Below are positions 13,601 through 64,000 of a stretch of 64,000 nucleotides of DNA, piece after piece. Position numbers and translations under genes: made by a program. Each line of letters begins with the position of its first letter. Positions within the stretch are counted from its first letter, which is position 1. The notes below the pieces were generated by a model, which saw only the letters and a program-made list of their open reading frames with translations, was not told the origin of the DNA and did no database searches. The DNA comes from a bacterium (GTDB lineage: Bacteria > Zhuqueibacterota > QNDG01), in contig JAGGVB010000195.1 of assembly GCA_021158245.1 (NCBI GenBank), positions 265 to 64,264 on the forward strand. Reading direction: 5' to 3'.

Positions 13601-13686
13601 GTTTAAGTGTCAGCAGCGGGATATATTTATGTGTTCTCAGGTTTAATAAAATTATTAATGTTAAGAAATTAATTTTAAGCAGATAA
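10621..13686 (+). CDS. GH13 alpha-amylase-family enzyme with N-terminal CBM48-like domain and T9SS CTD
   Basis: Catalytic motifs DGFRFDV, LLGET, FLENHDE; LDVTPNH; CTD QNFPNPFNGET; TTG start. Confidence 0.9.
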   Translation: MIKAVKKTIIRVYIFLLIILNTPVFSQNSVSVTFCCYPSGENVVRAFVPGTFNNWGPNSNGRIYLGSLSQMTFIDSLCLYVKKQDLTEGSTYEYKFYEHYNDSGTDYAWITDPLNPGKNSSNYNNSVLHIKKGFIFEIAPGNGSIINDSRPVFSASLCIDAKDSILTNQSEIFIDNVFYGNVDDIFIPELSIVHSKLPYLNNGLHSVRIEVKTLNGLSFCDSTEFSVKAGGVYFVTPDIDSLLAPVYNVRWKVETSQKAVKKITFNQIGRYPINFTPKSSGLYEYAITASHGRNQYQVIVEDTAGAISYSDTLNLVYPVSKKPAARIDFELQGDDILLNGICEYHYGQKLSYIWKNQDTNSLVIEEAESCTTRTVRIPKPVLPGDYSFKLTIYDENGDSGSAVNFFTVNRDSTVTFPDYAAVPQWVRDTRIYSLFFKSFTAEATIAAATQKLDYIKDMGFNVIWVLPVMDVEGEIDRNTNIGYNIINLYKIEPSYGTSEDFRQFVKEAHRRGLRVILDVTPNHVSRSHPIALDVRSKGIYSRYYDFFQHKIIPHNDNGLGQTVSQDGIVYYTGFSSALLNWNWSDDEARKYMLDVYTYWLQEYNIDGFRFDVYWGPHRRYGREDFDIHLREALRKQKADIFLLGETSGTGEGTEAQYADKGGGIDAAYDWVFSGTVASFPSVVSLDGVLYNSGFRPGQNSYFLRFLENHDELRVAYRYNSINKTIPVSTAMFLSTGIPMIWQGQEVGMGYEMTGSKEYLARSIVQWDLSGREKILVHYQKLAQIRKQFPAFGHQPEDTNGDNKINSADENVIPRLSTSDSKVFAFARPWKDRNGLVVINMGPSRTDVQVNLNLANWAKFSHVYSGDNKYFLNDLYNNNSIMEQGKELDTLSVNLGPYDVAVFTISCTKDSLILPEIKTGFKQDNEKHLPAEFQLMQNFPNPFNGETAINYNIVCSGEVELSIFNIRGQRIKTIINKHQNPGFYSVSWNGRDDGGLSVSSGIYLCVLRFNKIINVKKLILSR

Positions 13687-16094: not shown

Positions 16095-16117
16095 TAATAA
16101 ACTGGCAAGGAGGAGAC

Positions 16118-47637: not shown

Positions 47638-48462
47638 ATGAATGTTAAAGATTTTACAACCAGGTTTTTGGTTGCGCTTTTTGGGATACCGGTAATATTT
47701 ATTGCAGCACTCATCGGAAAAGAGGTTTTTTTAATTTTTGTTGATATTGTTATGCTTGCTGCACTTGTTGAGTTTTATTTAATGGTTAAAAACATAGGTG
47801 TTTTCCCGCAAACAGCAGGGGGAGTTATATTCCTCCTGCTGTCAAGCCTTGATATATATTTTTATCATGGCAGAAGCCTGTTATTACTTTTAATTTTTTT
47901 TATTATTCTTACACTTCTATCCGAGCTTCTTAGTAATAATATTAACAAAGCTGAAAATGCAGCGTGGACAATAACAGGTGCAGTTTATGTCGGCCTTCTT
48001 ATGTTCTTTTTGCAGTTGAGAGATATCCCCGAACATTTTAATATTCCATACATTACAGGAGGAAAAATAATAATAGTTATTTTCTCCATAATATGGACAT
48101 GTGATACTGCAGCTTATATATTCGGCTCATCATTTGGGAAACATAAACTTGCTTCAAAGATAAGCCCTAAAAAAACCGTTGAGGGAGCTGTCGCAGGACT
48201 TATAACCGGTACAGGAATGACAATACTTCTGGGATATTTATTACTTCCTGAATTGATATTAATAAATTATATTATTATCGGAATTATAATCGGGATATTC
48301 GGACAGTTAAGTGATCTGGTTGAATCAATGTTTAAGCGCGCAGCAGGTGTTAAAGATTCGTCTAATTTGCTTCCAGGTCATGGCGGTATGCTTGATAGAT
48401 TTGATAACCCTATTCTATCTGTTCCTGTTATTTATGCTTATTTAATGTTGTTTGTTTTTTAA
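47638..48462 (+). CDS. cdsA: Phosphatidate cytidylyltransferase
   Basis: WTCDTAAYIFG, KISPKKTVEG, SMFKRAAGVKDSSNLLPGHGGMLDRFD. Confidence 0.95.
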   Translation: MNVKDFTTRFLVALFGIPVIFIAALIGKEVFLIFVDIVMLAALVEFYLMVKNIGVFPQTAGGVIFLLLSSLDIYFYHGRSLLLLLIFFIILTLLSELLSNNINKAENAAWTITGAVYVGLLMFFLQLRDIPEHFNIPYITGGKIIIVIFSIIWTCDTAAYIFGSSFGKHKLASKISPKKTVEGAVAGLITGTGMTILLGYLLLPELILINYIIIGIIIGIFGQLSDLVESMFKRAAGVKDSSNLLPGHGGMLDRFDNPILSVPVIYAYLMLFVF

Positions 48463-49558: not shown

Positions 49559-50329
49559 ATGAAACGTCAGGAAAAAATTGATTTTTCAATAGCAGGAGAG
49601 GTAAGAACTTCCGGTTTTTCGGAAGGTTCAATTTTTCTGCGAACAGTATTCAATAAAACCAATTCAAAGAAAAATACTGCTTCAGTACAAATTCAGAAAT
49701 ATTTGAAAAGAGTAACTGATATTGTCGGTGCAGTGATGCTGCTTATAATCACTATGCCCCTGTTCGCAGTAATTAGTGCAGTCATTAAAATGAGTTCCAA
49801 AGGCGGAATATTTTACAAACAGAAACGTGTCGGTTATAAAGAAAATATATTTATAATCTATAAATTTCGAACAATGCAGCAGACAGATCAGAATGAAAAA
49901 GATCACCAAAAATATGTGCGCTACCTTCTTAAAGAAGGAGTTAACTCTAAAAAAAATGCTGAGTTTGTTTCATTATATATTGAATACATTGAGAGTCATA
50001 TAACACCTGTCGGACGGTTTTTAAGAGCAACAAGCCTTGATGAGATTCCTCAGCTTTTTAATATACTAAAAGGGGATATGAGTTTTGTAGGGCCAAGGCC
50101 TCATCCTGTGTATGAAGTTGCCGAATATAAAAAATGGTACAGAAGAAGGTTGAAAGTAAAACCGGGGCTGACAGGGTGGTCAAAACTAAGAATCAGAATG
50201 GCACCGGAAAACTATGAGGAATCAATTCTTTTAGATCTCTGGTATGTAAAAAACTGGAACATTTTACTTGATTTGAGAATTGTGTTTCTTACGTTTCCTC
50301 TTGTTCTTTTTATGAAGGATGCCCATTAA
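49559..50329 (+). CDS. Priming sugar transferase (bacterial sugar transferase family)
   Basis: LKRVTDI, FYKQKRVG, YKFRTM, TSLDEIPQLFNILKGDMSFVGPRP, VKPGLTG. Confidence 0.92.
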   Translation: MKRQEKIDFSIAGEVRTSGFSEGSIFLRTVFNKTNSKKNTASVQIQKYLKRVTDIVGAVMLLIITMPLFAVISAVIKMSSKGGIFYKQKRVGYKENIFIIYKFRTMQQTDQNEKDHQKYVRYLLKEGVNSKKNAEFVSLYIEYIESHITPVGRFLRATSLDEIPQLFNILKGDMSFVGPRPHPVYEVAEYKKWYRRRLKVKPGLTGWSKLRIRMAPENYEESILLDLWYVKNWNILLDLRIVFLTFPLVLFMKDAH

Positions 50330-50348
50330 TGTAATTAAGGGGAGTATA

Positions 50349-51353
50349 ATGAGATTTAGAAATAGAAGAGTACTTGTCACAGGTGGAGCAGGATTTGTCG
50401 GGTCAAGATTAGTCGACAGAATAGTTGAAGAGGGCGGAAAGGTGATTGTACTTGACGATCTTTTTACCGGCAGAAAAGAGAATATCAGCCATATTAAAGA
50501 GGTTGAGTTTATTCATAATTCTGTCACTGATTTTGATATTGTTTCAAAACTTGTAAAAAGATCGGATTTGGTTTTCAATCTTGCAGTCAGAAATATAATT
50601 GTATCTACTGCATCTCCTCAACTTGACTTTCAGGTAAATACAGGCGGTATTTTTAATGTACTCCTTGCTGCAAAGAGCCACAGTGTGGAGAGAGTTATTT
50701 ACACTTCCTCTGTGTCAGTCTATGGTAATCCTCATTATCTTCCAATAAATGAAGATGACAGGCTCTACACTCTCAATCCCTATGCTGCAAGCAAGCAATC
50801 CGGTGAAAATTACTGCAATGCTTTTTATGAGACGTATGGTATCTCCACTACAATTCTCAGATTCTCAAATGTATATGGAATAAATCAGATGCCTCAGAAT
50901 CCGTACTGCGGAGTTATATCTAGATTCTTCAGCAGGATTATGAATGGGCAGCCGTCTCTGATTCACGGTGACGGGCTGCAGACGAGAGATTTTACATATG
51001 TGGATGATGCTGTGGAAGCAACGATAAGAGCTGCTGTAAGCCCTAAAGCAGAAGGGCAGATTTTTAACGTAGGGACAGGATTTGAGACGAGTATAAATGA
51101 CCTTGCAGAAAAGATATCTGAAATTGTAGGAGTCCCCCACAATCCGGTCTATGTGGATAAACGTGATATTGACAATATACGCAGAAGAGTTGTAAATATT
51201 GAAAAGATAAGACGTATTCTCAAATGGATTCCGACCGTAACGCTTCATAAAGGGCTTGAGAATACTTTTGAATGGCTTGATTCTACCAATGATTTAAAGG
51301 CGCACAAAAAAACGGCAATGAGAGTTACTTTATCAAATAATTTTACTGCATAG
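50349..51353 (+). CDS. NAD-dependent epimerase/dehydratase
   Basis: VTGGAGFVG, YAASK, RFSNVYG, GDGLQTRDFTYVDD; ATG 50349 follows GGGGAG. Confidence 0.92.
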   Translation: MRFRNRRVLVTGGAGFVGSRLVDRIVEEGGKVIVLDDLFTGRKENISHIKEVEFIHNSVTDFDIVSKLVKRSDLVFNLAVRNIIVSTASPQLDFQVNTGGIFNVLLAAKSHSVERVIYTSSVSVYGNPHYLPINEDDRLYTLNPYAASKQSGENYCNAFYETYGISTTILRFSNVYGINQMPQNPYCGVISRFFSRIMNGQPSLIHGDGLQTRDFTYVDDAVEATIRAAVSPKAEGQIFNVGTGFETSINDLAEKISEIVGVPHNPVYVDKRDIDNIRRRVVNIEKIRRILKWIPTVTLHKGLENTFEWLDSTNDLKAHKKTAMRVTLSNNFTA

Positions 51354-51367
51354 GTGTTTGGCTGAAC

Positions 51368-52672
51368 ATGAATTCTTTGGTACTGAATCTGAAAAGAATA
51401 AAGACACGCTCTGCCGGGTCTTTGATAAAGAGAATTTATTCTATTGAAAGAAGGTATGGTTTTAATAAAAAGAGGTTTAAATCTTATCTTGTTAATTTTA
51501 TTAAAATGACTTCTTCAATGGATATTACGCCTTGTTTCCCTGTGCCGGGTGCTGTAATTTCAAGGAATATGGATTTTTTTAGAGAGATGAATAACCTGGG
51601 GGCGGATTTTGCAGCTCATGGATTTGTACATATTGATTATTCTCTTGTCACCGACGAAGAATTTAAAAGGCATCTGACTGAGATTAAAGAAGTATTTGGA
51701 AGAGCAGGAATTGAGTGCAGAGGTTTTAGGTTCCCGTTTTTCAGAAAGAAGAAGGGATATAAAACCGCTTTGATGAATGCAGGCTTTGATTGGGACAGCA
51801 GTGAGGTGGTTTCGTTTCCGATAAATGATGGGTTTTCTAAAAAATCAAAAATGAAAAATTATTACAAAATAAGAGAGACCTACGAACCTTTTGAATACGG
51901 AAAAATCAGGCAGACCCCTGATTTTGACGGGACACTTGTTGAAATTCCGGCTTCAATTCCGGATGATGATATCTTAGTTGAACGCTTTGGAATGAAATCA
52001 GAAGATCCGCGCTGGAGTATCTGGCCGGAAATGCTGAATAAAACAAAAAATGACGGAGGGCTTCTTGTTGTACAGGCACACCCTGAACGCTACAATGAGT
52101 TCAGTATTCCGCTTAAAAATCTGATAGAAGAAGCGAAAAGCTGTAATGATATCTGGATTACTTCCATGAATAATCTGTCGGATTGGTGGACAGAGAGAAG
52201 CGGATTTAAAGTATCTGTAAAAAAGGAGGGGGAATTAAAATACAGGGTAAATGTTAAAGGAAGCCAGAAACTAACTGTTCTTGTGAAAAATGTGATAAAG
52301 AAAAAAGAAGATGATTTGCAGTATTCTGAATACAGCAAAATAAAAGAGAGGTCGTTTGTTATTGACTGTATTAAGAAGCCGGTAATAGGCATTTCCCGTT
52401 CAGCAGGCAAGGAGATAAAAAGATTCCTTACAAATGAAGGCTTTGTATGGGAAGAAGCTGAAGAAGGGTCAAATTTCAGCCTTTTTATAAAAGGGGACAG
52501 AGAGCTCGGAGAGAGGTTAAAGCTTAAGGTTTTAAATGATATTGAAAAATGTCCATACCAGTTAATTAGAATATGGAGATGGCCTGGAAATAAAAAGTCA
52601 GCTTTTATATTAACCGGTGACATTGACGGTGTAACTCAGTGGGATATATGGATGAGAAATTATGGAAAATGA
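51368..52672 (+). CDS. Polysaccharide deacetylase-like protein (apparent circular permutation)
   Basis: AAHGFVH metal motif, GFRFPF, WDSS, QAHPE; LTGDID strand lies at the C-terminus. Confidence 0.7.
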   Translation: MNSLVLNLKRIKTRSAGSLIKRIYSIERRYGFNKKRFKSYLVNFIKMTSSMDITPCFPVPGAVISRNMDFFREMNNLGADFAAHGFVHIDYSLVTDEEFKRHLTEIKEVFGRAGIECRGFRFPFFRKKKGYKTALMNAGFDWDSSEVVSFPINDGFSKKSKMKNYYKIRETYEPFEYGKIRQTPDFDGTLVEIPASIPDDDILVERFGMKSEDPRWSIWPEMLNKTKNDGGLLVVQAHPERYNEFSIPLKNLIEEAKSCNDIWITSMNNLSDWWTERSGFKVSVKKEGELKYRVNVKGSQKLTVLVKNVIKKKEDDLQYSEYSKIKERSFVIDCIKKPVIGISRSAGKEIKRFLTNEGFVWEEAEEGSNFSLFIKGDRELGERLKLKVLNDIEKCPYQLIRIWRWPGNKKSAFILTGDIDGVTQWDIWMRNYGK

Positions 52673-54932
52673 AAACAGCAGGACAATTGAGATAGGTGAT
52701 CTGTTCAAACCCATAAAGCGTAATATTGGTATAATAATTATATTTTTTGTTACAATTGTGGGAACAGTTATATTCTTTACTGTTACAGCAGAAAAAGTAT
52801 ACGAAGCATCTGCAGTTCTTTCAATTCAGGAAGCAGTACGAACCCAGAATCAGCTTGTAGAAGTGCCTTCTGTGCTATATCAAAAGTATATTGTTCAAAA
52901 TCAGGTGGCAGTGCTTGAAAGCAGGTCTTTAGCCGGCAGAGTTATTAAAGACCTTATGAATTCGGAATACAGTGACTCTCTTAAAATTCTCGGAAGAATC
53001 AAGAACCGAAGTGCATCAGCGTTTTTCAGAAAAATTTTTAATAAAAGGGCGGGAAAGAGCAGGAAGAATAGCCTGCCGAGTTTTGATAAAAAAATAAGCC
53101 GCTTCAGGAAAGCAACAACTGTTTCTTATGGGCAGGAAACGAATATTATCAAATTAAAAGCGCGTTCAAACGTTCCATGGGAAGCAGCCTTTATTGTAAA
53201 TACGTGGTTAAAAGCGTATCAGGATTATAATAGATCGGATACAAAGGATGAAGTAACACAAACCAGAAATTTTCTCGAGAAGAAATTAAAAGAATATGAA
53301 CGGAAACTTACGCAGTCAGAACAGTCTCTTGCAAAGTATCAGAGAAAAAATAAGGTAGTTTCACTGCCTGATGAATCGAAACAGATTGTAACACAATTGG
53401 CAAATTTCCAATCATCATACAATTCCACAATTACTGAGCTTCAATCTATTAAACAAAAACTTGCATATCTTAACAGCCAGCTTGATGAGAGCAAAAAGAA
53501 CCTTGTTAAAGATATGGCAAATATTTCCAACCCCGTTCTCGGCGAGCTTCAGAAGGATATGGCTGAACTTGTTTCAAAAAGAGCAGCTTTTGAGGCACAA
53601 TTGATAGGTGCAGGTATTGAGCCTTCAACAAATTCAAAAATGAAAGAGATGGACAGCAGGATACAGGGAATAAGGCGGAGAATTATAAAAGAGACAAAAA
53701 AGCTTGTTGAAAACGGGCTTAATAATATGAACCCTCTTGGTAAATCGGAAAACTTGATCACAAAAATTCTGGAGCTTGAGACAGATTATAAGGCCCTGAG
53801 TGCAAAAGCATCATCACAGAAAAAGATAGTGGATACTTATACAGCACAGCTTGAGATGCTGCCCGATAAGAAGCTGCAGCTTGCTAAACTGGAACGTAAT
53901 GTACAGGTAAATAACAAAATTTATTTCATGCTTCGTGAAAAAGCAGAGGAAGCAAGAATAAGGCAGGCCGGGCAGATAAGCATTGCACGTATTGTTGATT
54001 TGGCAAATCCTCCATCCAAACCAGTTAGCCCAAGGCCCATGCTGAATCTGTTTTTTAGTATATTCTTCAGCCTGCTTCTCGGAATTGGCGTTGCATATGC
54101 CAGGGAATATTTCGAAGATTCAGTGAAAGGCCCTGATGATGCAGAGTACCTTGGCATGAAAGTAATCGGAACAATCCCTGTGGCAAAATCAGATAAAAGA
54201 AAATTATTGAGGAAAAAGAAAAACAGGGAATGGGGGATTACACGGGCGAGACAGATTCTTCCCTATTTTCTAATACAACAGGACAGTTATTCTCCTATTG
54301 CCGAATCTTACAAATCTCTGCGCACAAAACTATTTGCTGTTGAAGGAGAAAAAAGGCGTACAATCTTATTAACAAGCCCGGGTCCGGCTGAAGGAAAATC
54401 TACAACTGTGGCAAATCTTGCAATTACGGTTGCTCAAAAAGGTGTTAAAACCCTCCTTGTTGACAGTGATCTTCGGCGGCCTGTTCTTGATATACTGTTT
54501 ATGGGATCTCATAAAAGGCTTGGCCTGGCAAATTATCTTAAAGGTGAGGAGAGCATACAAAAATTAGTCAGGCCTACAACTGTCAGAGGGCTTGATCTTA
54601 TGCCTGCAAGTATGTCAGTTAAAGATGCTGCAGAGCTTTTAAGTTCAAGAAATATGGTGAAATTTATACATGCAGCTCAAAATATGTATGATATGGTTAT
54701 TTTTGACAGCCCTCCGATTCTGCCTGTGAGTGACGCTACCATTCTGTCATCTCTGGTAGACGGAATTATCCTTGTGATGAGGGCTCATAGAACTACTAGA
54801 GATTCAGTAAAGGAATCACTGTCAATTCTGAACAGTGTAGGGGCAAATATCCTCGGCGGCATTATTACCGGAACCGAGAGGAGAAAATATTACAAATATC
54901 ACGGTTACTATAATGGGCCGCATACAAAATAG
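52662..54932 (+). CDS. wzc: Wzc/GumC polysaccharide co-polymerase tyrosine kinase
   Basis: Two TM segments around a coiled-coil periplasmic region; GPAEGKST, DSDLRRP, DSPP; C-terminal Tyr cluster YYKYHGYY. Confidence 0.92.
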   Translation: MENENSRTIEIGDLFKPIKRNIGIIIIFFVTIVGTVIFFTVTAEKVYEASAVLSIQEAVRTQNQLVEVPSVLYQKYIVQNQVAVLESRSLAGRVIKDLMNSEYSDSLKILGRIKNRSASAFFRKIFNKRAGKSRKNSLPSFDKKISRFRKATTVSYGQETNIIKLKARSNVPWEAAFIVNTWLKAYQDYNRSDTKDEVTQTRNFLEKKLKEYERKLTQSEQSLAKYQRKNKVVSLPDESKQIVTQLANFQSSYNSTITELQSIKQKLAYLNSQLDESKKNLVKDMANISNPVLGELQKDMAELVSKRAAFEAQLIGAGIEPSTNSKMKEMDSRIQGIRRRIIKETKKLVENGLNNMNPLGKSENLITKILELETDYKALSAKASSQKKIVDTYTAQLEMLPDKKLQLAKLERNVQVNNKIYFMLREKAEEARIRQAGQISIARIVDLANPPSKPVSPRPMLNLFFSIFFSLLLGIGVAYAREYFEDSVKGPDDAEYLGMKVIGTIPVAKSDKRKLLRKKKNREWGITRARQILPYFLIQQDSYSPIAESYKSLRTKLFAVEGEKRRTILLTSPGPAEGKSTTVANLAITVAQKGVKTLLVDSDLRRPVLDILFMGSHKRLGLANYLKGEESIQKLVRPTTVRGLDLMPASMSVKDAAELLSSRNMVKFIHAAQNMYDMVIFDSPPILPVSDATILSSLVDGIILVMRAHRTTRDSVKESLSILNSVGANILGGIITGTERRKYYKYHGYYNGPHTK

Positions 54933-54957: not shown

Positions 54958-56121
54958 ATGGGCCCGGGAGCAATTGTCATTGGAGGACATTTTCAGGGGC
55001 TGGGTGCTGTTCGTGCGTTGGCACGTCAGGGTATAGATGTAGTTGTTATTGATAAGGAACACTGCATATCACGCTTTTCGCGTTACTGCAGTAGATTTTA
55101 CAAGAGCCCGGATGTACTTGATCATAAAAAAATTTATAAATTTCTTGAATCTCTGTCAAATATTAAAGGAATGAAGGGAAGAGTGATTTTCCCGACTGAT
55201 GATGAAACAGTGCATTTCCTTTCAACATATCATACCAGGCTTTCTGATAAATATAGATTAATAACTCCTGATTGGACTATAGTTAAAAATGTCTATAATA
55301 AAAAACTTAGTTATAAGCTTGCATCAAAACTGGATATACCGATACCAGCAAGCTTCTTCCCCGGAAATTTTGAAGAACTTGGTAATCATAACCTGAGATA
55401 TCCGGTAATTATTAAACCTGCGGTTATGAGGCCATTTTTCAAAGTAACAGGTAAGAAAGTTTTTAAGGCTGTCAATGAATCGGAATTAAGGAAAGCCTAC
55501 AAACTTGCAGCAACGATAATTGATCCTGAAGAAATAATAATTCAAGAGCAGATTCCAGAACCGGGGAAGAACCTCTATTCATACTGCCCTGTAATGGACA
55601 GGGGCAGAGTGCTTGCATCAATAACCGCACAGCGCCTTCGCCAGCACCCAATGGATTTCGGCAGAGCTACAACTTTTGCTGAAACAAAAATCGTCAAAGA
55701 ACTGGAGCCCTATGCTGTTAGATTTTTGAAAGCTATAGATTACAGCGGGTTAGCAGAAGTAGAGTTTATATATGATATCAGAGATAATGCATACAAGTTT
55801 CTCGAAGTTAATCCGAGGATATGGGGCTGGCATTCCATTGCTTCAGGTGCAGGGGTTAATCTTCCATACCTTGCTTATAAGCAGGCATTAGGGCGTTATG
55901 TAAGAGCTCATCAATTTAAAACAGGTATAAAATGGTTCAGAGTTATAACTGATGTACCGGTCGGCGCAGTAGAGATAATAAAAGGGAATATGACAGTAAA
56001 AGATTTTATTAATTCATACAGAGGTAGAAAGGAGTTTGCGGTTTTTTCATGGAATGACCCAATACCTTTTTTCGGAGAATTATTGCTTTTACCTTATCTT
56101 TATAAAGTACGGGGGTTCTAA
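54958..56121 (+). CDS. ATP-grasp (carboxylate-amine ligase, D-aspartate-ligase-like) protein
   Basis: GLGAVRALARQG, FPTDDE, YPVIIKP, IQEQIP, RQHPMDFG, EVEF, LEVNPR. Confidence 0.85.
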   Translation: MGPGAIVIGGHFQGLGAVRALARQGIDVVVIDKEHCISRFSRYCSRFYKSPDVLDHKKIYKFLESLSNIKGMKGRVIFPTDDETVHFLSTYHTRLSDKYRLITPDWTIVKNVYNKKLSYKLASKLDIPIPASFFPGNFEELGNHNLRYPVIIKPAVMRPFFKVTGKKVFKAVNESELRKAYKLAATIIDPEEIIIQEQIPEPGKNLYSYCPVMDRGRVLASITAQRLRQHPMDFGRATTFAETKIVKELEPYAVRFLKAIDYSGLAEVEFIYDIRDNAYKFLEVNPRIWGWHSIASGAGVNLPYLAYKQALGRYVRAHQFKTGIKWFRVITDVPVGAVEIIKGNMTVKDFINSYRGRKEFAVFSWNDPIPFFGELLLLPYLYKVRGF

Positions 56122-56122
56122 A

Positions 56123-56926
56123 ATGATTTTTTTACCAATTATTTTCAATATATTTATTTCAATGCTTGTTCTCAGTTTACTATCGATAAAATTGAATATT
56201 GTCAGGCCTGTTGTAATGAGAACAGCAGGTGTAATCGCTGTATTATCATCATTAAGCGCACAGGTAATATACACGGCTCTGTCTGGATTGTCGATTTTAT
56301 ATCTGATTCTACTGGCGATTGTAATATCTTTGGGTATCTCTTTTCTGATAATTATGTTAATGTTTTTCAGAGACCCTGAACGGAATATTCCTATAGAAAA
56401 GGGATTTATCCTTTCCCCTGCAGATGGTACTGTACGCTATGTAAAAGAAATTAAAGAGGGCGAAATTGCTTTTTCAGAAAAAAAAGGGAAAAAATTTCCG
56501 TTAAAGGAAATCACGCATACGGATATTATTAATAACGGTGCTTATGTAGTAGGCATTGAGATGAGTATAATTGATGTTCATGTAAACAGAGCGCCAATTG
56601 CGGGAACTTTGAATCTTATTCACAGTTCTCCCGGGAAATATTTATCTCTTAGGAATATTGATTCGGTTCTTGAAAATGAAAGAGTAACCACTCTTTTTAC
56701 TGGAAAAGATATATCCATTGGTGTTGTGCAGATCGCATCACGTATTGTAAGAAGAATTGTTGTTTACAAAAAATTACATGACAAACTTTCTGCAGGTGAA
56801 AGATTCGGAAGAATTACATTCGGGTCTCAGGTTGATGTTATTATTCCTGATGCTGCAGGCTTGAAGATTAATGTAAAACAGGGTGATTTTGTAAAAGCAG
56901 GTACAAGTGTAATAGCCCAATATTAG
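56123..56926 (+). CDS. psd: Phosphatidylserine decarboxylase-like pyruvoyl enzyme with N-terminal TM segments
   Basis: FFRDPER, SPADG, DVHVNRAP, ENER, VQIASRIVRRI, FGSQVD self-cleavage site. Confidence 0.85.
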   Translation: MIFLPIIFNIFISMLVLSLLSIKLNIVRPVVMRTAGVIAVLSSLSAQVIYTALSGLSILYLILLAIVISLGISFLIIMLMFFRDPERNIPIEKGFILSPADGTVRYVKEIKEGEIAFSEKKGKKFPLKEITHTDIINNGAYVVGIEMSIIDVHVNRAPIAGTLNLIHSSPGKYLSLRNIDSVLENERVTTLFTGKDISIGVVQIASRIVRRIVVYKKLHDKLSAGERFGRITFGSQVDVIIPDAAGLKINVKQGDFVKAGTSVIAQY

Positions 56927-56955
56927 TGCTGAATAAGAAAATCGGGAATTTGTGT

Positions 56956-57720
56956 ATGTCAAAAGAATTAAAAACAGTTATCCTTGCTTATCCGGATAAT
57001 CCGGTAGGGAGTAAATTTATTTCAACATTCATTAAAGGAAATATTTCTGTTTCAGCGGTTATTGTAGAAGAATCAGCAAGATCCTCACTTTTGAAGAGAT
57101 TTAATGACAAGATAAAAAAGGATGGTTTTGCAGGTGCGGTTAAGAGAATAATTGAAGTATTTATTCTTAAATTAATGAAAAAAAGAATTGTTGATTATGT
57201 TGAGAGAGCAGAAATACCTCTTTATTTTGTAAATAAATTTAACAGCACGGAATGTGAAGTGCTTTTAGATGAATTAGGCCCTGATTTGATCATAATTGCT
57301 TCGGCACCAATTTTAAAACCCGAAATATTTTCAAAAGCATCAATAGGATGCATTAACGCTCACCCTGGATGGCTGCCGAGGTATAGGGGTATTGGGGCAA
57401 ACGCATATGCACTTCTTAACGGGGATAAACCCGGGATAACAGTGCATTTCATTGATAAGGGAATTGATACAGGCAGTATAATTATCAGAGAAACGATAAA
57501 CATTAATAAAGGCGATACAATTGCAAGGATTAATGACAGAGCTGTTGCGAGAGGAGCAGAACTGGTTACTCAGGTTATAAAAGATATAAAAGAGGGCAGA
57601 TTGAAAATGTCCGAGATTGATGAACCTGCCGGCCCTGTCTATAAAGCAATGCCGTATAGTCTTGCAAAACAAGTCAATAGGTCACTACGTTCTCAGGGAG
57701 CTAAAAAAAATGGTATATAA
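56956..57720 (+). CDS. Formyltransferase-family protein
   Basis: INAHPGWLPRYRG, TVHFIDKGIDTGSII. Confidence 0.85.
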   Translation: MSKELKTVILAYPDNPVGSKFISTFIKGNISVSAVIVEESARSSLLKRFNDKIKKDGFAGAVKRIIEVFILKLMKKRIVDYVERAEIPLYFVNKFNSTECEVLLDELGPDLIIIASAPILKPEIFSKASIGCINAHPGWLPRYRGIGANAYALLNGDKPGITVHFIDKGIDTGSIIIRETININKGDTIARINDRAVARGAELVTQVIKDIKEGRLKMSEIDEPAGPVYKAMPYSLAKQVNRSLRSQGAKKNGI

Positions 57721-59167
57721 CCGCGTTCTTCTTGTAAGCCCGCCATCTTCAAGCTATCTTGGTGCTGCACGTCCGCCTCAGAATTTGGGATTTCTGGCAC
57801 GTGCATTAATGGATAATGGAATCTGCTATGATGTCCTTGATATGAGGCTTGGTTACTCGTTCAGACATCTTAAGAAAAAAATAGATAAGTTTAAACCTGA
57901 CCTTATAGGTGTGACTCTGGTATCACTTGAATATATTAAATCTTATGACCTTATCAGCAGAATTAAAGAATATGTGCCTGATGTGCCCATAGTAGCAGGA
58001 GGGCCTCATGTTACAGTAGTAAAGAATAAGGTTCTTGAGGAATGCAGGGAAATTGATTACGGAGCAGTGAATGAAGGTGAAGATATCCTTGTAGAACTTT
58101 GTAAAGGTGTTGTCGGTGTTCAAAACATTGCCGGACTTCTCCACAGGGTAGAGGATGAAGTTGTATACAACGGGCCACGGCATTATACTGATGACCTTGA
58201 TGTAATATCGTGGCCCACGTATGAAAAATTTGAATTAAAAAAGTATATAAAAGAGGTGCCTATTAATTCCAGCAGAGGCTGTCCGTATCAGTGTGTTTTT
58301 TGCCCTAACAAAATAATAAGCAAAAGATTCCGGAAACGGAGTGCTTTGAATGTTGTTGACGAAGTAGAATATTGGTATAATAAAGGATATAGAGTATTTA
58401 ATTTTGATGATGATAATTTTACTCTTGATAATCAGCGTGTTTTTGATATTTGTGACGAAATAGAAAAAAGAAATATTGTCAATGCAGAATTTCGATGTTC
58501 AAATGGGATAAGAGCAGACAGGATTACACGTGAACTCCTTGAGAGGATGAAAGAAGTCGGTTTTAATTATATAGCTTTCGGAGTAGACGGCGGCAATAAT
58601 AAAATGCTCAGGATTAATAAAAAAGGTGAAACCATTGAGCAGATAGAAGAAGCGATTAAGAATGCCTGTGAGCTTGATTATGATGTGAAAATATTTGTAA
58701 TTACAGGGATGCCGCAGGAAACAATTGAAGATGTTGAAGATTCCTTCCGAATTGTTCAGAAGTATCCGATAAAAAGGGTCATACTTAATAACCCGATTCC
58801 ATATCCCGGAACCGAACTTTACGAGACTGTGAAGGCGAACAACTGGTTTATTAAACAGCCGGAAGAGTATTTGAATTACGTTACGGAAAATGAGGACATA
58901 CCTGTTTTTGAAACACCTGAAATGTCAAGGGAAGCAAGGCAGAAACTTTTAAAGAGGTGCAGAAGAATAGAGAAACAGGTAACACAAAGAGCAGTTGAAC
59001 GGATGTATGCTCAATATGGAATTTTGGCAAAGCTCGGCGGGTATATTTTTGCATCGCGATTTATGGAGAGAATGTTTTTTCAGAATATTGCATTCCGCAG
59101 GATAATCGAACACATAAGATACAGACGGCTTTTAACAAAGATGGAAGCAATGGAAAGGGCTGCATGA
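57710..59167 (+). CDS. Cobalamin-binding radical SAM protein
   Basis: GGPHVT B12-domain motif; SSRGCPYQCVFC (CxxxCxxC); DDNF; PYPGTELY. Confidence 0.9.
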   Translation: MVYNRVLLVSPPSSSYLGAARPPQNLGFLARALMDNGICYDVLDMRLGYSFRHLKKKIDKFKPDLIGVTLVSLEYIKSYDLISRIKEYVPDVPIVAGGPHVTVVKNKVLEECREIDYGAVNEGEDILVELCKGVVGVQNIAGLLHRVEDEVVYNGPRHYTDDLDVISWPTYEKFELKKYIKEVPINSSRGCPYQCVFCPNKIISKRFRKRSALNVVDEVEYWYNKGYRVFNFDDDNFTLDNQRVFDICDEIEKRNIVNAEFRCSNGIRADRITRELLERMKEVGFNYIAFGVDGGNNKMLRINKKGETIEQIEEAIKNACELDYDVKIFVITGMPQETIEDVEDSFRIVQKYPIKRVILNNPIPYPGTELYETVKANNWFIKQPEEYLNYVTENEDIPVFETPEMSREARQKLLKRCRRIEKQVTQRAVERMYAQYGILAKLGGYIFASRFMERMFFQNIAFRRIIEHIRYRRLLTKMEAMERAA

Positions 59168-60324
59168 AAGTATGTATGATTTCATATTCGGTTTATGAAT
59201 ATGATAACAGAGTCCACCGTTACGGAGAGGCTTTAATTAAGGCAGGTGTTGAACTTGATGTTATCTGCCTGTCTCCCAATTCACAAAGAAGAAAGATAGC
59301 ATACGGGACAGGTGTACATTATCATATTGGGAGCCGTTCATTTACAGAGAAAGGCCCGGTTTCGTACCTGTTAAATTTCATTAAATTTTTCAGTAAAAGT
59401 TTTTTTATGGTTTCATGGTTATATCTGAAGAAAAAATATGATGTTGTACATTATCACAATATTCCGGATTTCGGAGTATTTGCTGCAATTATACCAAAAA
59501 TATTCGGCGCAAAGGTTTTACTTGATATCCATGATATTGTCCCTGAATTTTATATGTGGAAATTTAACCTTGCAGAGAATCATCCCATTGTCAGGTTTCT
59601 GAAATTTGTAGAGAGGCTTTCATGCAGTTTTGCAGATCATGTGATTACGGGAACGCATCTGTGGCGGGAAAAACTTGTAAAAAGGTCTGTTAATAGAAAA
59701 AAGTGTTCTGTTATCATGAATTCTCCTTATCCTCCTCTTTTTGATAAAGCGAAAAATATTAAAAATAAAAACAGACGGTTTACGATGATCTATCCGGGCT
59801 CACTGAACGAACATTTCGGAGTTGATATTGCAGTAAGAGGAGTTGCTTTAATAAGAGAAAAAATTCCGGATGTACTTCTTATAATTTACGGAAGGGGCAG
59901 GCAGGAAGCAATGCTGAAAAAAATTGTTTCAGAGTTGGATATTGCAGATAATGTGCAGTTTAACCAGCCTGTGCCAAGAGAAAAAATTCCGGAGATCATT
60001 GCAGAGTCAGATATAGGTATAGTACCAAAAAGAGGCGGGCCTTTTGCAGATGAGGCGCTGAGCTCCAAACTACTGGAGTTTGTATACATGAATAAACCTG
60101 TTGTTGTTTCAAAAACAACAATTGCTGAGTATTATTTTAATGATTCGATTGTAAGGTTCTTTACACCTGAGAATGTTAAAGCATTCGCAAGCTGTGTTGT
60201 GGATTTGTATCAAAATCCGGCAGAGATGAAAAAACTGTCTGAGAATTGTAAGAAATTTAACGAAACTCATTCATGGGAAATGTATGAGACGGAGTATTTT
60301 AAAATTTTAAATCGGAAGCTATAA
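59164..60324 (+). CDS. Glycosyltransferase family 4
   Basis: YDNRV, HNIPD, DIHD..PE, SSKLLEF (E-x7-E region). Confidence 0.9.
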   Translation: MKVCMISYSVYEYDNRVHRYGEALIKAGVELDVICLSPNSQRRKIAYGTGVHYHIGSRSFTEKGPVSYLLNFIKFFSKSFFMVSWLYLKKKYDVVHYHNIPDFGVFAAIIPKIFGAKVLLDIHDIVPEFYMWKFNLAENHPIVRFLKFVERLSCSFADHVITGTHLWREKLVKRSVNRKKCSVIMNSPYPPLFDKAKNIKNKNRRFTMIYPGSLNEHFGVDIAVRGVALIREKIPDVLLIIYGRGRQEAMLKKIVSELDIADNVQFNQPVPREKIPEIIAESDIGIVPKRGGPFADEALSSKLLEFVYMNKPVVVSKTTIAEYYFNDSIVRFFTPENVKAFASCVVDLYQNPAEMKKLSENCKKFNETHSWEMYETEYFKILNRKL

Positions 60325-61349
60325 TGCAGATAGCTATATTAAAAAAAGAGCAGGATGTTTTATGGAAAGAGTATATTGAGAAAAATCCGGAAACAACATT
60401 CTTTCATAAAATAGAGTGGAGAGATTTAGTTGTAGACCTTTTTGGATTTACTCCATATTATCTTATTGCAACAGATGGTAATGTTTTCAAAGGCGTCCTT
60501 CCGCTTTTTTTGACTCCGCATGGACTTTTCCAGAAGAAGATGGTTTCTGTCCCTTTTGCTGTTGCAGGCGGTGTATGCGGAGATGACCGGGAAACCGAAA
60601 AAGCTCTTATAAAAAAGGCCATTGAACTGACAAAATCTAAGGGAGCTGATTTTCTTGAGCTTCGAAATTTTAATCACAAGCCCGGCAATTTGACACAGAG
60701 TTCTCCATATTTTACATTTATGCTTAAATTGCCGGATGATTCTGAAATTATATGGAAATCCATGCATAATGAGATGCGCAGATGTGTACGAAGAAGCAGA
60801 GAATACGGTATTACCCTGGATTTGGACAATAAAGACATAAAAGGATTTTATTCGATTTATGCAGGGGCACACAGGTTTCTCGGAACGCCTCCTGCAGGTT
60901 TTAAGTGGATATATGAAGTATTTTCCAGATTTCCGGAAAACCACAGAATAGCAAATGCATATATAGACGGGAAAGTAATTGCAACAATACTTGTCAGAGA
61001 GTATAAGGATACTATTGGTGCTGTATTCGGCCATGTTATCCGGGATTACAGGAACATGTATCCTCTGTATCTTCTTTATTGGAGTCTTATTGAAGAAGGA
61101 TGTAAAAAAGGGTTTAAAAAATTTGATTTTGGCAGAAGTATTGAAGAGAGCGGTACTTTTAAGTTTAAAAAAAGATGGGGTGCAGAACCGCATAAACTGA
61201 ACTACCAATACTATAAGTCAAATAATAAAAAGGTCGCGGATACAAGTCAATCCGGTACTGCAAGAAAGAAGTTCGCAGCTGTCTGGAAAAGGCTGCCCCT
61301 TGTTATTGTAAATAAACTTGGGCCGGTTATTAGAGGATATTATCCTTAA
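60324..61349 (+). CDS. FemAB-related GNAT protein
   Basis: TFFHKIEW, GVLPLF, MVSVPFAVAGG, LELRN, FDFGRS..ESGTFKFKKRWGAEP. Confidence 0.88.
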   Translation: MQIAILKKEQDVLWKEYIEKNPETTFFHKIEWRDLVVDLFGFTPYYLIATDGNVFKGVLPLFLTPHGLFQKKMVSVPFAVAGGVCGDDRETEKALIKKAIELTKSKGADFLELRNFNHKPGNLTQSSPYFTFMLKLPDDSEIIWKSMHNEMRRCVRRSREYGITLDLDNKDIKGFYSIYAGAHRFLGTPPAGFKWIYEVFSRFPENHRIANAYIDGKVIATILVREYKDTIGAVFGHVIRDYRNMYPLYLLYWSLIEEGCKKGFKKFDFGRSIEESGTFKFKKRWGAEPHKLNYQYYKSNNKKVADTSQSGTARKKFAAVWKRLPLVIVNKLGPVIRGYYP

Positions 61350-61367: not shown

Positions 61368-61856
61368 ATGGTTTCAAAATATTCATCTGTTAAACACATT
61401 TACCGTGAGGTACTGCATCTTATCCGAAGGCATGCCATAGGTAATTCTGTGAGAGTAAAATTACTGAAAATGGCTGGTGCCAATGTAGGTAAAAATGTTT
61501 ATATCGGCCAGGAGATGATAGTGTTTGATTCCGGACGTACAGAGCTTCTGACTATAGGAGATAATGTGGGCATAGCACCGTGCTGCATTATTCTCATTCA
61601 CACAGCACCGGGAACTCCCCTTCACGATACAATTTATCCTGTTCAGAGAAAGCCTGTTATAATCGAAGAAGGAGTGTGGATCGGCGCCAGGGTAACAATC
61701 CTCGGTGGAGTGAAAATAGGGAAGAATTCGGCAGTGGCAGCAGGTTCTGTTGTAACAAAAAATGTTCCTCCTTACACTTTAGTGGGAGGTGTCCCTGCTG
61801 TTACTATCAGAAAATTTACAAAACCCGGGCCTGAAGAATCGGGAAAAATTGAATGA
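61368..61856 (+). CDS. Hexapeptide-repeat acyltransferase
   Basis: IGDNVGIAP, IEEGVWIGARVTILGGVKIG..SAVAAGSVVTKNVPP..LVGGVPA. Confidence 0.9.
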   Translation: MVSKYSSVKHIYREVLHLIRRHAIGNSVRVKLLKMAGANVGKNVYIGQEMIVFDSGRTELLTIGDNVGIAPCCIILIHTAPGTPLHDTIYPVQRKPVIIEEGVWIGARVTILGGVKIGKNSAVAAGSVVTKNVPPYTLVGGVPAVTIRKFTKPGPEESGKIE

Positions 61857-62743
61857 AACATCAAGTACCGGTATGTATAACATGCGATATCGATCCTACA
61901 CCTGAAGCAGGCATTCAGGAGAAGATTAAAGCTGTTGAAAAGAGTGTAAATTTATTCAGTGAGTTCGGCATTAAATCTACGTTTTTCTGGGTTGCAAATG
62001 TAGCCGAAGAGTATAAATCTGTATTTAATAAACTTCTGAAGTCCGGCCATGAAATCGGGTGCCATGGGTTGAATCACGGCATGGAAGAAGAGTATTCAAC
62101 AATGGAAGAGAAGACGCAGAGAGATATGCTCTCTCAGGCAACAACAAAACTAAAGAAAATTACAGGCCAGGAGATCAAATCATTTAGAGGCCCGAGAGTA
62201 AAAACTTCGGAAATCACGCAGAAAATACTTGTGGAACTGGGATACAATGTAGATTCATCAGTCTGTTCACAACGTGTGGATTTTATAAGTTCCAATCTTA
62301 TAAATCCGGGCTGGATAAAAGCGCCGAGGCTTCCGTATCATCCGCATAAAAATAGTGCATTTAAAAAAGGGGAAGTACCCATACTTGTTGTTCCTGTTTC
62401 GGCTATTGTAATTCCCTTTATTTCAGGCTCTCTTTATACATTCGGCTTAAACTGGATGAAGGTGCTATTCAACTCTTTGTATGAAGAGTCGTTAATTACC
62501 GGAAAGCCTATAGTCTACCTTCTTCATCCAGCTGAATTTGCAAGAAAAGAAAAACCGGCAAGAAGAAAATTCTCAGTAAAGGTTGAGGGCTTTAAATTCA
62601 GAAGGTCATCTGTAATTTTTGAACAGAACATTAATAAACGGTATGAACTCAACAGAAAGTTATTTGAGTTTATGGCATTCCATAAAGGTATACGCTTTAT
62701 GACAACAGATCAATTCTCAGGAGGCTATGTTCATAAAAAATAG
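61853..62743 (+). CDS. Polysaccharide deacetylase family protein
   Basis: CITCDID, KSTFF, HEIGCHGLNH, SFRGP, VDSS, YLLHPAEF. Confidence 0.88.
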   Translation: MKHQVPVCITCDIDPTPEAGIQEKIKAVEKSVNLFSEFGIKSTFFWVANVAEEYKSVFNKLLKSGHEIGCHGLNHGMEEEYSTMEEKTQRDMLSQATTKLKKITGQEIKSFRGPRVKTSEITQKILVELGYNVDSSVCSQRVDFISSNLINPGWIKAPRLPYHPHKNSAFKKGEVPILVVPVSAIVIPFISGSLYTFGLNWMKVLFNSLYEESLITGKPIVYLLHPAEFARKEKPARRKFSVKVEGFKFRRSSVIFEQNINKRYELNRKLFEFMAFHKGIRFMTTDQFSGGYVHKK

Positions 62744-64000
62744 TGAAAATTTTATCGGAAGGCTGGGCCGGCTATCGCTTTACGGAATAACAGGCATTAT
62801 GCTGGGGATAATACTTTCTTCAGCTTTACTTGGTTATATCCCGCAGTTTACAGCAGGTCTTGCTTTTATGTTTGCTATAATTCCAATGATAGTAACCTGG
62901 CATTCCCATGCAAAGAAAGCTTTTGTTGCTCTCTTAATATTATCAATGGCACTTGTAATTGACAGAACTTTCAGCCTCCATCCGGAACATATGGAAGGAG
63001 CTAAAGGGTTTGTTTTGTCCATGCATGATATTGCACTATTGTTTGCACTTTTTGTATCTTTCTTTGAATCCATTCTTAAAAAAGATTTAAAAGTAATGTT
63101 TTTCCCAAGATATACACTGCCTCTTTTGGGAGTTGTTTTAATGTCAATACTTTCCATGAGCAAGGCTGTGGCAGTGAATTTCTCTTTTTATGAGCTTATT
63201 GAAATATTAAAGGCAATTTTTGTTTTTCTGTACATTGCAAACTACACTTACAAAGAAGAAAACTATAAATTTGTCATTACGTTTGTAATGATTGGGCTTG
63301 GTATAGAGATAATGTTTGTAATTATCGAAATTATTTCCGGTTCTCTGCATATTCCATTTCTTGCCACAAGAATGAATGAAGCTGCAGACGGTATCCGGCA
63401 GCAAGAGTATTACAGGGCAGGAGGTACTCTCGGAGGCGCCAACGGACTTGCATGGTACCTTGATTTTGTACTTCCCATAGCCTTGGCATTAACGTTTTAT
63501 AAAATAAAGAGTTTCCCGAGAATTTTAAGCTTTATTCTCACAGGAGGGGGGATTATAGCTCTTATTGCTACCTTTTCAAGGGGCGGCTGGGTAGGATTTA
63601 TTGTCGGCGGGTTTATGGTCTGGTATTTCTATATTCGTAATGCGGGCATTTTAAAAAAAATATTTTCAGTACTGACTTTTTTACTGATAATAGTTATGGC
63701 TGTAACTTTGATAGCTGGTACGGCAAATCCGATAAAAGAAAGATTAAGTGAAAATGACAAGGGCTCAGCCTATGTAAGAATTCCGCTTATGGTTGTCGCA
63801 TTGTCAATGATAAAGGCAAATCCTATAATTGGCGTAGGCCTTAATAATTATACTTTTGTCCATCAGAATTACGATTACGGAGTAGATAAAATTACAAGTT
63901 ACTATCCGGTACCTGTCCACAATTTTTTTCTGCAGCTTACCGGAGAAGTAGGAATCCCTGGGCTTCTGTTTTTCCTTTTATTTATAATTACTGTTTTTTA
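62727..64000 (+). CDS. O-antigen ligase/Wzy-family membrane protein (3' end outside window; absent from ORF track)
   Basis: Frame from ATG 62727, hydrophobic; RAGGTLGGANGLA, TFSRGGW, NPIIGVGLNNY, PVHNFFLQLTGEVGIPG. Confidence 0.88.
   Translation, partial: MFIKNSENFIGRLGRLSLYGITGIMLGIILSSALLGYIPQFTAGLAFMFAIIPMIVTWHSHAKKAFVALLILSMALVIDRTFSLHPEHMEGAKGFVLSMHDIALLFALFVSFFESILKKDLKVMFFPRYTLPLLGVVLMSILSMSKAVAVNFSFYELIEILKAIFVFLYIANYTYKEENYKFVITFVMIGLGIEIMFVIIEIISGSLHIPFLATRMNEAADGIRQQEYYRAGGTLGGANGLAWYLDFVLPIALALTFYKIKSFPRILSFILTGGGIIALIATFSRGGWVGFIVGGFMVWYFYIRNAGILKKIFSVLTFLLIIVMAVTLIAGTANPIKERLSENDKGSAYVRIPLMVVALSMIKANPIIGVGLNNYTFVHQNYDYGVDKITSYYPVPVHNFFLQLTGEVGIPGLLFFLLFIITVF

Follow-up and report, generated by a model that had tools for sequence, protein, structure and literature searches.

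The occurrence of a gene of the phosphatidylserine decarboxylase (PSD) family within a polysaccharide operon raises the question of what such an enzyme is doing there. PSD is commonly treated as a marker of lipid synthesis, and automated annotation names copies of the kind described here 'phosphatidylserine decarboxylase'. The case in hand lies in a 64,000-nucleotide stretch of contig JAGGVB010000195.1 (assembly GCA_021158245.1), the whole of which is referred to as the window, from an uncultured hydrothermal-vent bacterium with a genome assembly of 3.2 Mb that is 95% complete. The locus is a one-directional exopolysaccharide (EPS) operon of the Wzx/Wzy type, running from an OmpR-type regulator (48840) onward. 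Directly 3' of its Wzc-type autokinase stands a block of four genes, for convenience called the cassette:

54958..56121, + strand: ATP-grasp ligase of an uncharacterised family, core gene 1 (387 residues; Pfam CPSase_L_D2 and ATPgrasp_Ter)
56123..56926, + strand: membrane-anchored PSD-family pyruvoyl decarboxylase paralogue, core gene 2 (267 residues; PF02666, 139.1 bits)
56956..57720, + strand: formyltransferase consisting of the N-terminal domain only, accessory (254 residues; PF00551, Formyl_trans_N)
57710..59167, + strand: B12-binding radical S-adenosylmethionine (SAM) enzyme, BchE/HpnJ-like, frequent accessory (485 residues; PF02310 and PF04055)

Our answer is that the first two genes form a two-enzyme glycan-tailoring module in a Wzx/Wzy-dependent EPS operon, with a PSD paralogue that does not make phosphatidylethanolamine (PE), a reading to which we assign a probability of roughly 60%. 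That the ligase and the decarboxylase are a glycan-tailoring pair unrelated to PE synthesis is, taken by itself, highly probable; the specific chemistry set out below, in which aspartate or glutamate would be linked through its side chain, is put forward tentatively. A glycan rather than a membrane lipid is the most likely target because the pair recurs in polysaccharide loci, and does so also in genomes devoid of phosphatidylserine (PS) synthesis.

The four genes are translationally coupled and all intact, with their catalytic motifs kept, in agreement with the initial annotation, a reading of the DNA letters and their translations that had placed four tightly coupled genes directly after wzc. 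The ATP-grasp gene starts at ATG 54958 with AAGGAG 8 nucleotides upstream, and the ATG of the PSD-like gene at 56123 is one base past the ATP-grasp stop. The formyltransferase might alternatively begin at GTG 56926, but ATG 56956 is likelier because the resulting 254 residues match its relatives. The radical SAM gene begins at ATG 57710 behind an AGGGAG ribosome-binding site, overlapping the formyltransferase gene by 11 nucleotides, and the start of the following GT4 gene (59164) lies inside its stop codon in an ATGA overlap. None of the four proteins reaches any curated NCBIfam cut-off. No RNA runs holding the sequence were found, all matches being to DNA runs of hydrothermal-vent metagenomes.

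The first point to settle is whether the PSD paralogue serves the phospholipid metabolism of its host. It is not the housekeeping enzyme. A second PF02666 gene is present on contig C65, and the gene immediately after it encodes a CDP-alcohol phosphatidyltransferase scoring above the cut-off of the PssA model. The PSD of this contig passes the NCBIfam PSD cut-off (199.2 versus 183), whereas the cassette copy fails, with 165.4 bits for NF003685, its best-matching equivalog. The two PSDs are 33% identical. The initial annotation had noted that no pssA appears in the window, and this extends to the whole contig, on which no CDP-alcohol phosphatidyltransferase was detected.

The same distinction was followed in 20 genomes with this ATP-grasp family, 18 of which hold the PSD paralogue at the ATP-grasp locus; absence of PssA was judged for both type II (TIGR00473) and type I (NF006946). 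In ten of the 18 carriers a second PSD lies directly beside a PssA above the curated cut-off, as in the host genome, and a psd-pssA pair is also found in G015, a genome without the cassette PSD. Seven carriers, among them a complete Dehalococcoidales and a complete Aminicenantes chromosome, possess the cassette PSD alone and lack both PssA types as well as any other PSD; the PssA-less carriers of the sample include members of Dehalococcoidia, Aminicenantes, Pirellulaceae and Coriobacteriales. The sole CDP-alcohol phosphatidyltransferase of locus L130 (G006, the complete Dehalococcoidales chromosome) and of L132 (G020) is like a phosphatidylinositol-phosphate (PIP) synthase, with matches of about 140-157 bits that fall just short of the cut-off of 170, and no PgsA- or PssA-type enzyme was found in these two genomes. 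A tree built from 87 PSDs gathers the 11 pssA-linked sequences in one split with an SH-like approximate likelihood-ratio test (SH-aLRT) support of 99, and no cassette PSD falls inside it. A separate housekeeping psd-pssA pair and a phylogeny of PSDs by genomic context had both been proposed as checks on the idea that this PSD does not act on phospholipid, and both bear it out.

These data also bear on the possibility that the cassette encodes a true second PSD for a local supply of PE, either as a phosphoethanolamine donor or as a lipid anchor of the polymer, with the ATP-grasp enzyme doing an unrelated job. The full catalytic set and the membrane anchor of the protein would suit this role, the host has pssA and makes PS, and archaeal sorting systems do use dedicated paralogues of the PssA/PssD type, whose models NF038086 and NF038088 are matched here below cut-off. 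The seven carriers without PssA or another PSD, two of them complete chromosomes, conflict with it and make it the less likely explanation. In addition, the paralogue is found adjacent or fused to the ATP-grasp enzyme and never to pssA, and its lineage is distinct from that of the pssA-linked PSDs and stays under the equivalog cut-offs. We consider a second PE-producing enzyme highly improbable.

With respect to its sequence, the cassette PSD is a complete member of its family. The PF02666 domain scores far above the cut-off of 22, over residues 105-293 of the long open reading frame (ORF). Asp 101, His 153 and the Gly-Ser site, G234-S235, are invariant in 73 cassette PSDs, D101 and H153 aligning with D90 and H144 of E. 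coli PSD (residues according to PMC7952604). Within the family alignment the Gly-Ser site occupies the same position as the LGST motif of the E. coli enzyme; the direct alignment to the E. coli protein covers the beta chain only. Six further residues are invariant and specific to the clade, Y106, K120, R187, S206, R207 and V209, with K120 located in an insert of approximately 17 residues. Immediately after the pyruvoyl serine, cassette PSDs have a glutamine (Q236) where the housekeeping enzymes have an arginine. There are three hydrophobic segments at the N-terminus, and from the positive-inside rule, together with the requirement of the partner enzymes for ATP, formyl-tetrahydrofolate and SAM, the catalytic domain is predicted to face the cytoplasm. 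Note that mapping the phosphate-binding residues of the E. coli enzyme (Y137, S166, V167) onto the cassette PSD was uninformative, as short-type housekeeping PSDs already differ at these positions.

If the PSD does not belong with PssA, its constant partner is the ATP-grasp ligase. A pattern scan of species-representative genomes for the latter yielded 80 loci, all in metagenome-assembled genomes (MAGs), from 17 named phyla plus 23 loci without an assigned phylum. ORFs of these loci were labelled by means of the proteins of the window, and 75 loci had enough downstream sequence. A PSD gene is adjacent to the ATP-grasp gene (<300 nucleotides) in 57 of the 75, lies within 7 kb in another seven and is absent in 11, and the pair occurs in 14 named phyla. 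The radical SAM gene accompanies the pair in 37 of the 80 loci and the formyltransferase gene in roughly one of every seven; all four genes are together in 11, which come from Dehalococcoidia and from bacteria that are KSB1-like or unclassified. On the contigs examined for five PSD homologues (about 45-78% identical; KSB1-like, Zhuqueibacterota and Dehalococcoidia), each is encoded directly behind the same ATP-grasp enzyme, and the same gene order recurs in other metagenomes at 52-78% PSD identity. The co-occurrence of the four genes, which the initial annotation had named as a check, does exist elsewhere, but they are not one obligate unit: the conserved core is the ATP-grasp and PSD pair. 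In Dehalococcoidia and Zhuqueibacterota an extra conserved ORF, absent from the window, stands between the PSD gene and the formyltransferase or radical SAM gene; it encodes 374 residues without a Pfam match in the former (L017:8836-9960) and 446 residues with a weak match to DUF362 in the latter (L015:8852-10192). In Candidatus Entotheonella (L053:8860-9984, 12035-16342) a gene of the Acyl_transf_1 family, similar to malonyl-CoA:ACP transacylases, precedes the pair and a 1,436-residue ORF follows it, so that polyketide or fatty-acyl chemistry may be combined with the pair at this locus.

Fusion proteins lead to the same core. In P0143 and P0184 the PSD is fused to the ATP-grasp enzyme with both the membrane segments and the GSQVD cleavage site retained, such that the pyruvoyl chain would stay covalently tethered to the ligase after self-cleavage. 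Chance adjacency was rejected on the basis of these fusions and of the co-occurrence counts. Other fusion partners in the ATP-grasp family are CE4 proteins (P0188, P0239, P0229), FemAB-like proteins in both orders, GT4 glycosyltransferases (P0223, P0248, P0138), GNAT proteins and N-monooxygenases of the Lys/Orn type. This set of partners indicates that the ligase belongs to sugar chemistry and not to lipid chemistry.

The ligase itself offers little further guidance. Its family comprises 3,939 cluster representatives (E<=1e-30), and the protein stays below every NCBIfam cut-off. An AlphaFold2 model with a predicted local distance difference test (pLDDT) score of 92.4 shows the three-domain ATP-grasp fold, with biotin carboxylases, PurK and RizA as structural neighbours (Foldseek, E ~1e-20), and the nucleotide-binding motifs of the superfamily are kept. 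Assigning a function from structure was dropped, as Foldseek and profile searches returned generic ATP-grasp neighbours only. The TupA-like ATP-grasp family is absent among the Pfam matches of the protein at E<=0.01, and no model named for Aslfm is among the best 25 of its 30 NCBIfam matches.

The surroundings of the cassette are those of a polysaccharide operon throughout, and the remaining features of the window that matter here are the following:

48840: OmpR-type response regulator, first gene in the order of the EPS operon
49559..50329, + strand: small polyprenyl-phosphate glycosyl-1-phosphate transferase (Bac_transf), the initiating enzyme (TIGR03025, 250 bits; syntenic in relatives)
50319..51353, + strand: NAD-dependent sugar epimerase/dehydratase (NCBIfam matches of the dTDP-glucose dehydratase, LegB and GalE types; syntenic)
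51368..52672, + strand: CE4-like (NodB-type) deacetylase homologue, 434 residues (weak TIGR03006 match)
52662..54932, + strand: Wzc-type chain-length determinant and tyrosine autokinase (GNVR, Wzz, AAA_31; TIGR01007, 154.7 bits, cut-off 108)
59164..60324, + strand: GT4 glycosyltransferase (Glycos_transf_1, Glyco_transf_4)
60324..61349, + strand: FemAB/VimA-like aminoacyl transferase (TIGR03019, 260.9 bits versus a cut-off of 260.35)
61368..61856, + strand: hexapeptide-repeat acyl/acetyltransferase (Hexapep)
61853..62743, + strand: canonical CE4 polysaccharide deacetylase, VimE-like role (PF01522, 65.5 bits)
62727..64000, + strand: Wzy_C polymerase/ligase (PF04932), extending beyond the end of the window

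Past the end of the window the same contig continues with a Wzx flippase, a GT2 and a GT4 gene. The succession of GT4, FemAB, acyltransferase, deacetylase and ligase/polymerase that had been recognized downstream of the cassette is matched by the domains found, and this operon context, together with co-occurrence and fusions, supports the earlier view of the cassette as one for polysaccharide tailoring. Two neighbouring systems were considered and set aside. A cdsA-like gene (47638-48462) just upstream of the EPS operon might have represented a lipid branch of the cassette, but the genome has no other CTP_transf_1 gene, and this one is therefore the housekeeping cdsA; its synteny with the operon, seen only in close relatives, is probably coincidental. 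An XrtA/PEP-CTERM exosortase system was likewise rejected: the 95%-complete genome contains no PF09721 match, the family of the exosortase EpsH/XrtA, and only the FemAB gene reaches a PEP-CTERM-associated model.

Which group on the glycan the ligase might use is suggested by a third partner. The 434-residue CE4-like deacetylase encoded in front of wzc is the commonest companion of the ATP-grasp and PSD pair: in 29 of 36 fully flanked loci the ATP-grasp gene has a member of this family or a CE4-like relative no more than 6 kb away, and with DegT aminotransferase genes counted as well the number is 31. The protein has the motifs HGxxHxD, GFRxP and PDD along with a C-terminal GDxD, all conserved across 31 homologues; the Asp-rich motif (GDiD) is situated within the last 25 residues and the other three earlier in the chain. 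A UDP-sugar 6-dehydrogenase, by comparison, is found within 10 kb of the cassette in just two of 18 genomes.

From these elements we propose a sequence of reactions that would take place on the cytoplasmic face of the membrane. The 434-residue CE4-like protein would expose a sugar amine, a role that the DegT aminotransferase might take in other lineages. The ATP-grasp enzyme would then convert an amino-acid carboxyl group into an acyl phosphate and couple it to the sugar amine, leaving the alpha-amino and alpha-carboxyl groups free. The residue ligated would be aspartate through its beta-carboxyl or glutamate through its gamma-carboxyl group, as is done by Aslfm in peptidoglycan; use of the side chain is required since a PSD acting after the ligation needs both the alpha-amine and the alpha-carboxyl group free. 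The PSD paralogue could thereupon form a Schiff base with the alpha-amine and remove the alpha-carboxyl group, and an amine-ended beta-alanyl or 4-aminobutyryl arm would be left on the lipid-linked sugar. The formyltransferase may cap this new primary amine and the radical SAM enzyme may methylate an unactivated carbon. As to the last two proteins, the formyltransferase retains the Asn-x-His ... Asp triad, CINAHPGWLPRYRG and IDTG aligning with the catalytic residues of Fmt, and its closest solved relatives in the PDB are Fmt and sugar N-formyltransferases, while the radical SAM protein combines an N-terminal B12-binding domain with CPYQCVFC, a CX3CX2C motif.

This scheme departs from the one first suggested for the locus, in which the amino group of serine was to form an amide with a uronic acid before the PSD paralogue decarboxylated the product. 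The cassette does place a ligase next to a decarboxylase, and amides between amino acids and uronic acids occur commonly in bacterial glycans. Even so, the rarity of the UDP-sugar 6-dehydrogenase near the cassette makes the link to a uronic acid a weak one. The chemistry of the second step is a further obstacle: PSD-family enzymes form a Schiff base between their pyruvoyl carbonyl and a primary amine of the substrate, upon which the adjacent carboxyl group is expelled, and N-(uronoyl)serine, like any N-acyl serine, lacks the free alpha-amine that this mechanism needs (PMC7952604, PMC11929908). We therefore abandoned this part of the initial annotation, whose probability in its literal form is next to negligible.

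A uronic acid could be accommodated in a different manner if the ATP-grasp enzyme joined the C6 carboxyl group of a uronate to the side-chain amine of lysine, ornithine or diaminobutyrate, after which the PSD would remove the alpha-carboxyl group to yield an amide of the cadaverine or putrescine type that the formyltransferase could cap. Here the demand for a free alpha-amine is satisfied. In Geobacteraceae, genes of 3-amino sugar synthesis flank the pair, WbpB/WbpD-like on one side and WbpE-like on the other, and the classical substrate of this set is a uronic acid; the Lys/Orn-type N-monooxygenase domains fused to some members of the ATP-grasp family would also be in keeping with a diamino acid. 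The rare dehydrogenase linkage speaks against this route as well, and it leaves the linkage to the deacetylase unexplained. Nor does it fit the variants in which the ATP-grasp gene, in loci without a PSD, is followed by one for proline dehydrogenase; in others it is followed by or fused with a flavin N-monooxygenase of the Lys/Orn type. Examples of the PSD-less loci are L086:11204-12196, L063:11541-12449 and L089:11153-12400, and of the proteins P0155 and P0147. A diamino-acid amide of a uronate thus appears improbable. The variants themselves suggest a family of glycan modules that ligate an amino acid and then modify it, and the proline dehydrogenase and N-monooxygenase would presumably likewise require the amino group of the attached residue to be free.

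The order of the two core reactions may also be questioned. PSD could act first, on O-phospho-L-serine or L-serine, and the ATP-grasp enzyme second, amidating a glycan carboxylate with the resulting ethanolamine phosphate or ethanolamine to form an ethanolamide, the end product envisaged by the initial annotation, with either a uronic acid or an acidic residue installed previously as the acceptor. Campylobacter jejuni HS:2 is a direct precedent, in that the ATP-grasp enzyme Cj1438C amidates glucuronic acid with ethanolamine phosphate or serinol phosphate and is fused to a glycosyltransferase (PMC11800379), to which the GT4 fusions of the present ATP-grasp family are a parallel. Phosphoserine would be the smallest departure from the PS head group, the exchange of arginine for glutamine after the pyruvoyl serine and the invariant R187, R207 and K120 are compatible with altered head-group binding, and PSD-family enzymes acting on free amino acids are known, such as PsiD (PMC11929908). 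Note also that either order of the steps is compatible with the fusion proteins. What this order fails to explain are the three conserved transmembrane segments, which a soluble substrate would not call for, and the strong linkage to CE4-like deacetylases or aminotransferases. Furthermore, no phosphatase is conserved in the cassette, the ATP-grasp enzyme does not match the TupA-like family to which Cj1438C belongs, and the dehydrogenase supplying a uronic acid is again linked too rarely. On balance we regard decarboxylation ahead of ligation as unlikely and retain ligation followed by decarboxylation.

Several observations weigh against the glycan-tailoring module as we describe it. All carriers found are uncultured and represented by MAGs. 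The PSD paralogue keeps the hallmarks of a true PSD together with its membrane anchor, so that, judged by its sequence, it could act on a substrate of the lipid or phosphoserine type. The PSD tree has an uncertain root, and under the chosen outgroup the housekeeping clade emerges on a long branch from among the cassette PSDs. Neither profile nor Foldseek searches retrieved a close characterised relative of the ATP-grasp enzyme. Five of the 36 loci have no CE4-like or DegT gene nearby, and the deacetylase linkage is circumstantial. What the formyltransferase and the radical SAM enzyme act on is a guess, and both proteins are missing from many loci. Finally, no beta-alanyl or 4-aminobutyryl amide that could be matched with the cassette is known to us from a polysaccharide structure.

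Amino-acid tailoring of envelope glycans is in itself a known kind of modification, but we found the use of a PSD-family enzyme for it described nowhere. Our literature search returned no account in which PSD appears together with both ATP-grasp and polysaccharide, or together with both formyltransferase and radical SAM, and we found no curated family model for a PSD-family enzyme paired with an ATP-grasp enzyme in glycan synthesis. If the cassette PSD takes a small or glycan-bound amino-acid substrate, the capacity for PE synthesis has been over-called in many uncultured lineages, and the cassette would represent a new enzymatic route to amine-ended, charge-altering EPS decorations, spread over some 4,000 sequence clusters and many phyla. 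It would also provide a compact and testable system in which to study the re-targeting of a pyruvoyl lipid enzyme.

A close neighbour among glycan modifications of this kind is the Wbp/Vim pathway of Porphyromonas gingivalis and Tannerella forsythia, where the CE4 protein VimE deacetylates a sugar, VimA, of the TIGR03019 type, adds serine or glycine, and VimF is a GT4 enzyme; the aminoacylated sugar amine then attaches type IX secretion system (T9SS) cargo (PMC7468200). Of these types of protein the window encodes one of TIGR03019, two that are CE4-like and one GT4. In contrast, the Vim pathway lacks ATP-grasp, PSD-like, formyltransferase and radical SAM enzymes. The ORFs scanned between the response regulator (48840) and the end of the window include none like WbpB or WbpE, and WbpA is likewise missing from this locus. 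The likeness extends to a possible function, in which the amine-ended arm on a surface glycan would be the nucleophile for a sortase-like covalent attachment of proteins, generalising the Wbp/Vim linking sugar. The transpeptidase would here be the T9SS sortase PorU and in other phyla other sorting enzymes. The host genome does encode a PorU-type T9SS sortase (contig C207:10839-14021, 820 bits). More than 40 of its ORFs match the C-terminal domain (CTD) part of the PorU model, two of them in the window (at about 10244-10468 and 13411-13644). We nevertheless hold protein attachment to be distinctly unlikely because the cassette occurs in phyla not known for T9SS, and because the formyltransferase would block the amine. 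Were it true, it would be a second widespread job for the PSD family, in cell-surface assembly outside lipid synthesis.

For the favoured ligation and decarboxylation of a side-chain-linked amino acid, other known systems each supply a part. The fold, the N-terminal anchor and the Asp, His and Gly-Ser sites are common to the cassette PSD and E. coli Psd (6L06/7CNW), a representative of the short-type PF02666 PSDs. The cassette protein differs from the housekeeping enzymes in having three instead of two hydrophobic segments, the insert of about 17 residues and glutamine in place of arginine, and in its lack of a link to pssA. That the PSD fold can serve outside of lipid metabolism is exemplified by PsiD, a fungal L-tryptophan decarboxylase that employs the same pyruvoyl Schiff base on a non-lipid amino acid (PMC11929908). 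Unlike the cassette PSD, it is a soluble eukaryotic enzyme of secondary metabolism that acts on the free amino acid and has no ligase partner. Cooperation of a decarboxylase and a ligase on a capsule sugar, as proposed here, is found in C. jejuni HS:2, with the decarboxylase Cj1436, the C-terminal ATP-grasp domain of Cj1438 and the phosphatase Cj1435. There, the ligase is TupA-like and the decarboxylase is a soluble pyridoxal-phosphate enzyme, whereas the cassette combines a ligase of another ATP-grasp family with a membrane-bound pyruvoyl enzyme.

The last parallel is provided by the cross-bridges of peptidoglycan, where the step that follows D-aspartate ligation is amidation, as opposed to the decarboxylation proposed for the cassette. 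The ATP-grasp D-aspartate ligase Aslfm serves in this pathway as an alternative to the Fem aminoacyl-tRNA transferases, activating the side-chain carboxyl group and leaving the alpha end free (PMC2655667). The two enzyme types represent the known means by which an amino acid is attached to the amine of an envelope precursor. The likeness of Aslfm to the cassette ATP-grasp enzyme is functional only, and the acceptor would here be a sugar of the polysaccharide instead of the lysine of a stem peptide. Both types of cross-bridge enzyme, ATP-grasp and Fem-like, are nevertheless present in this locus, and in relatives they are fused to each other.

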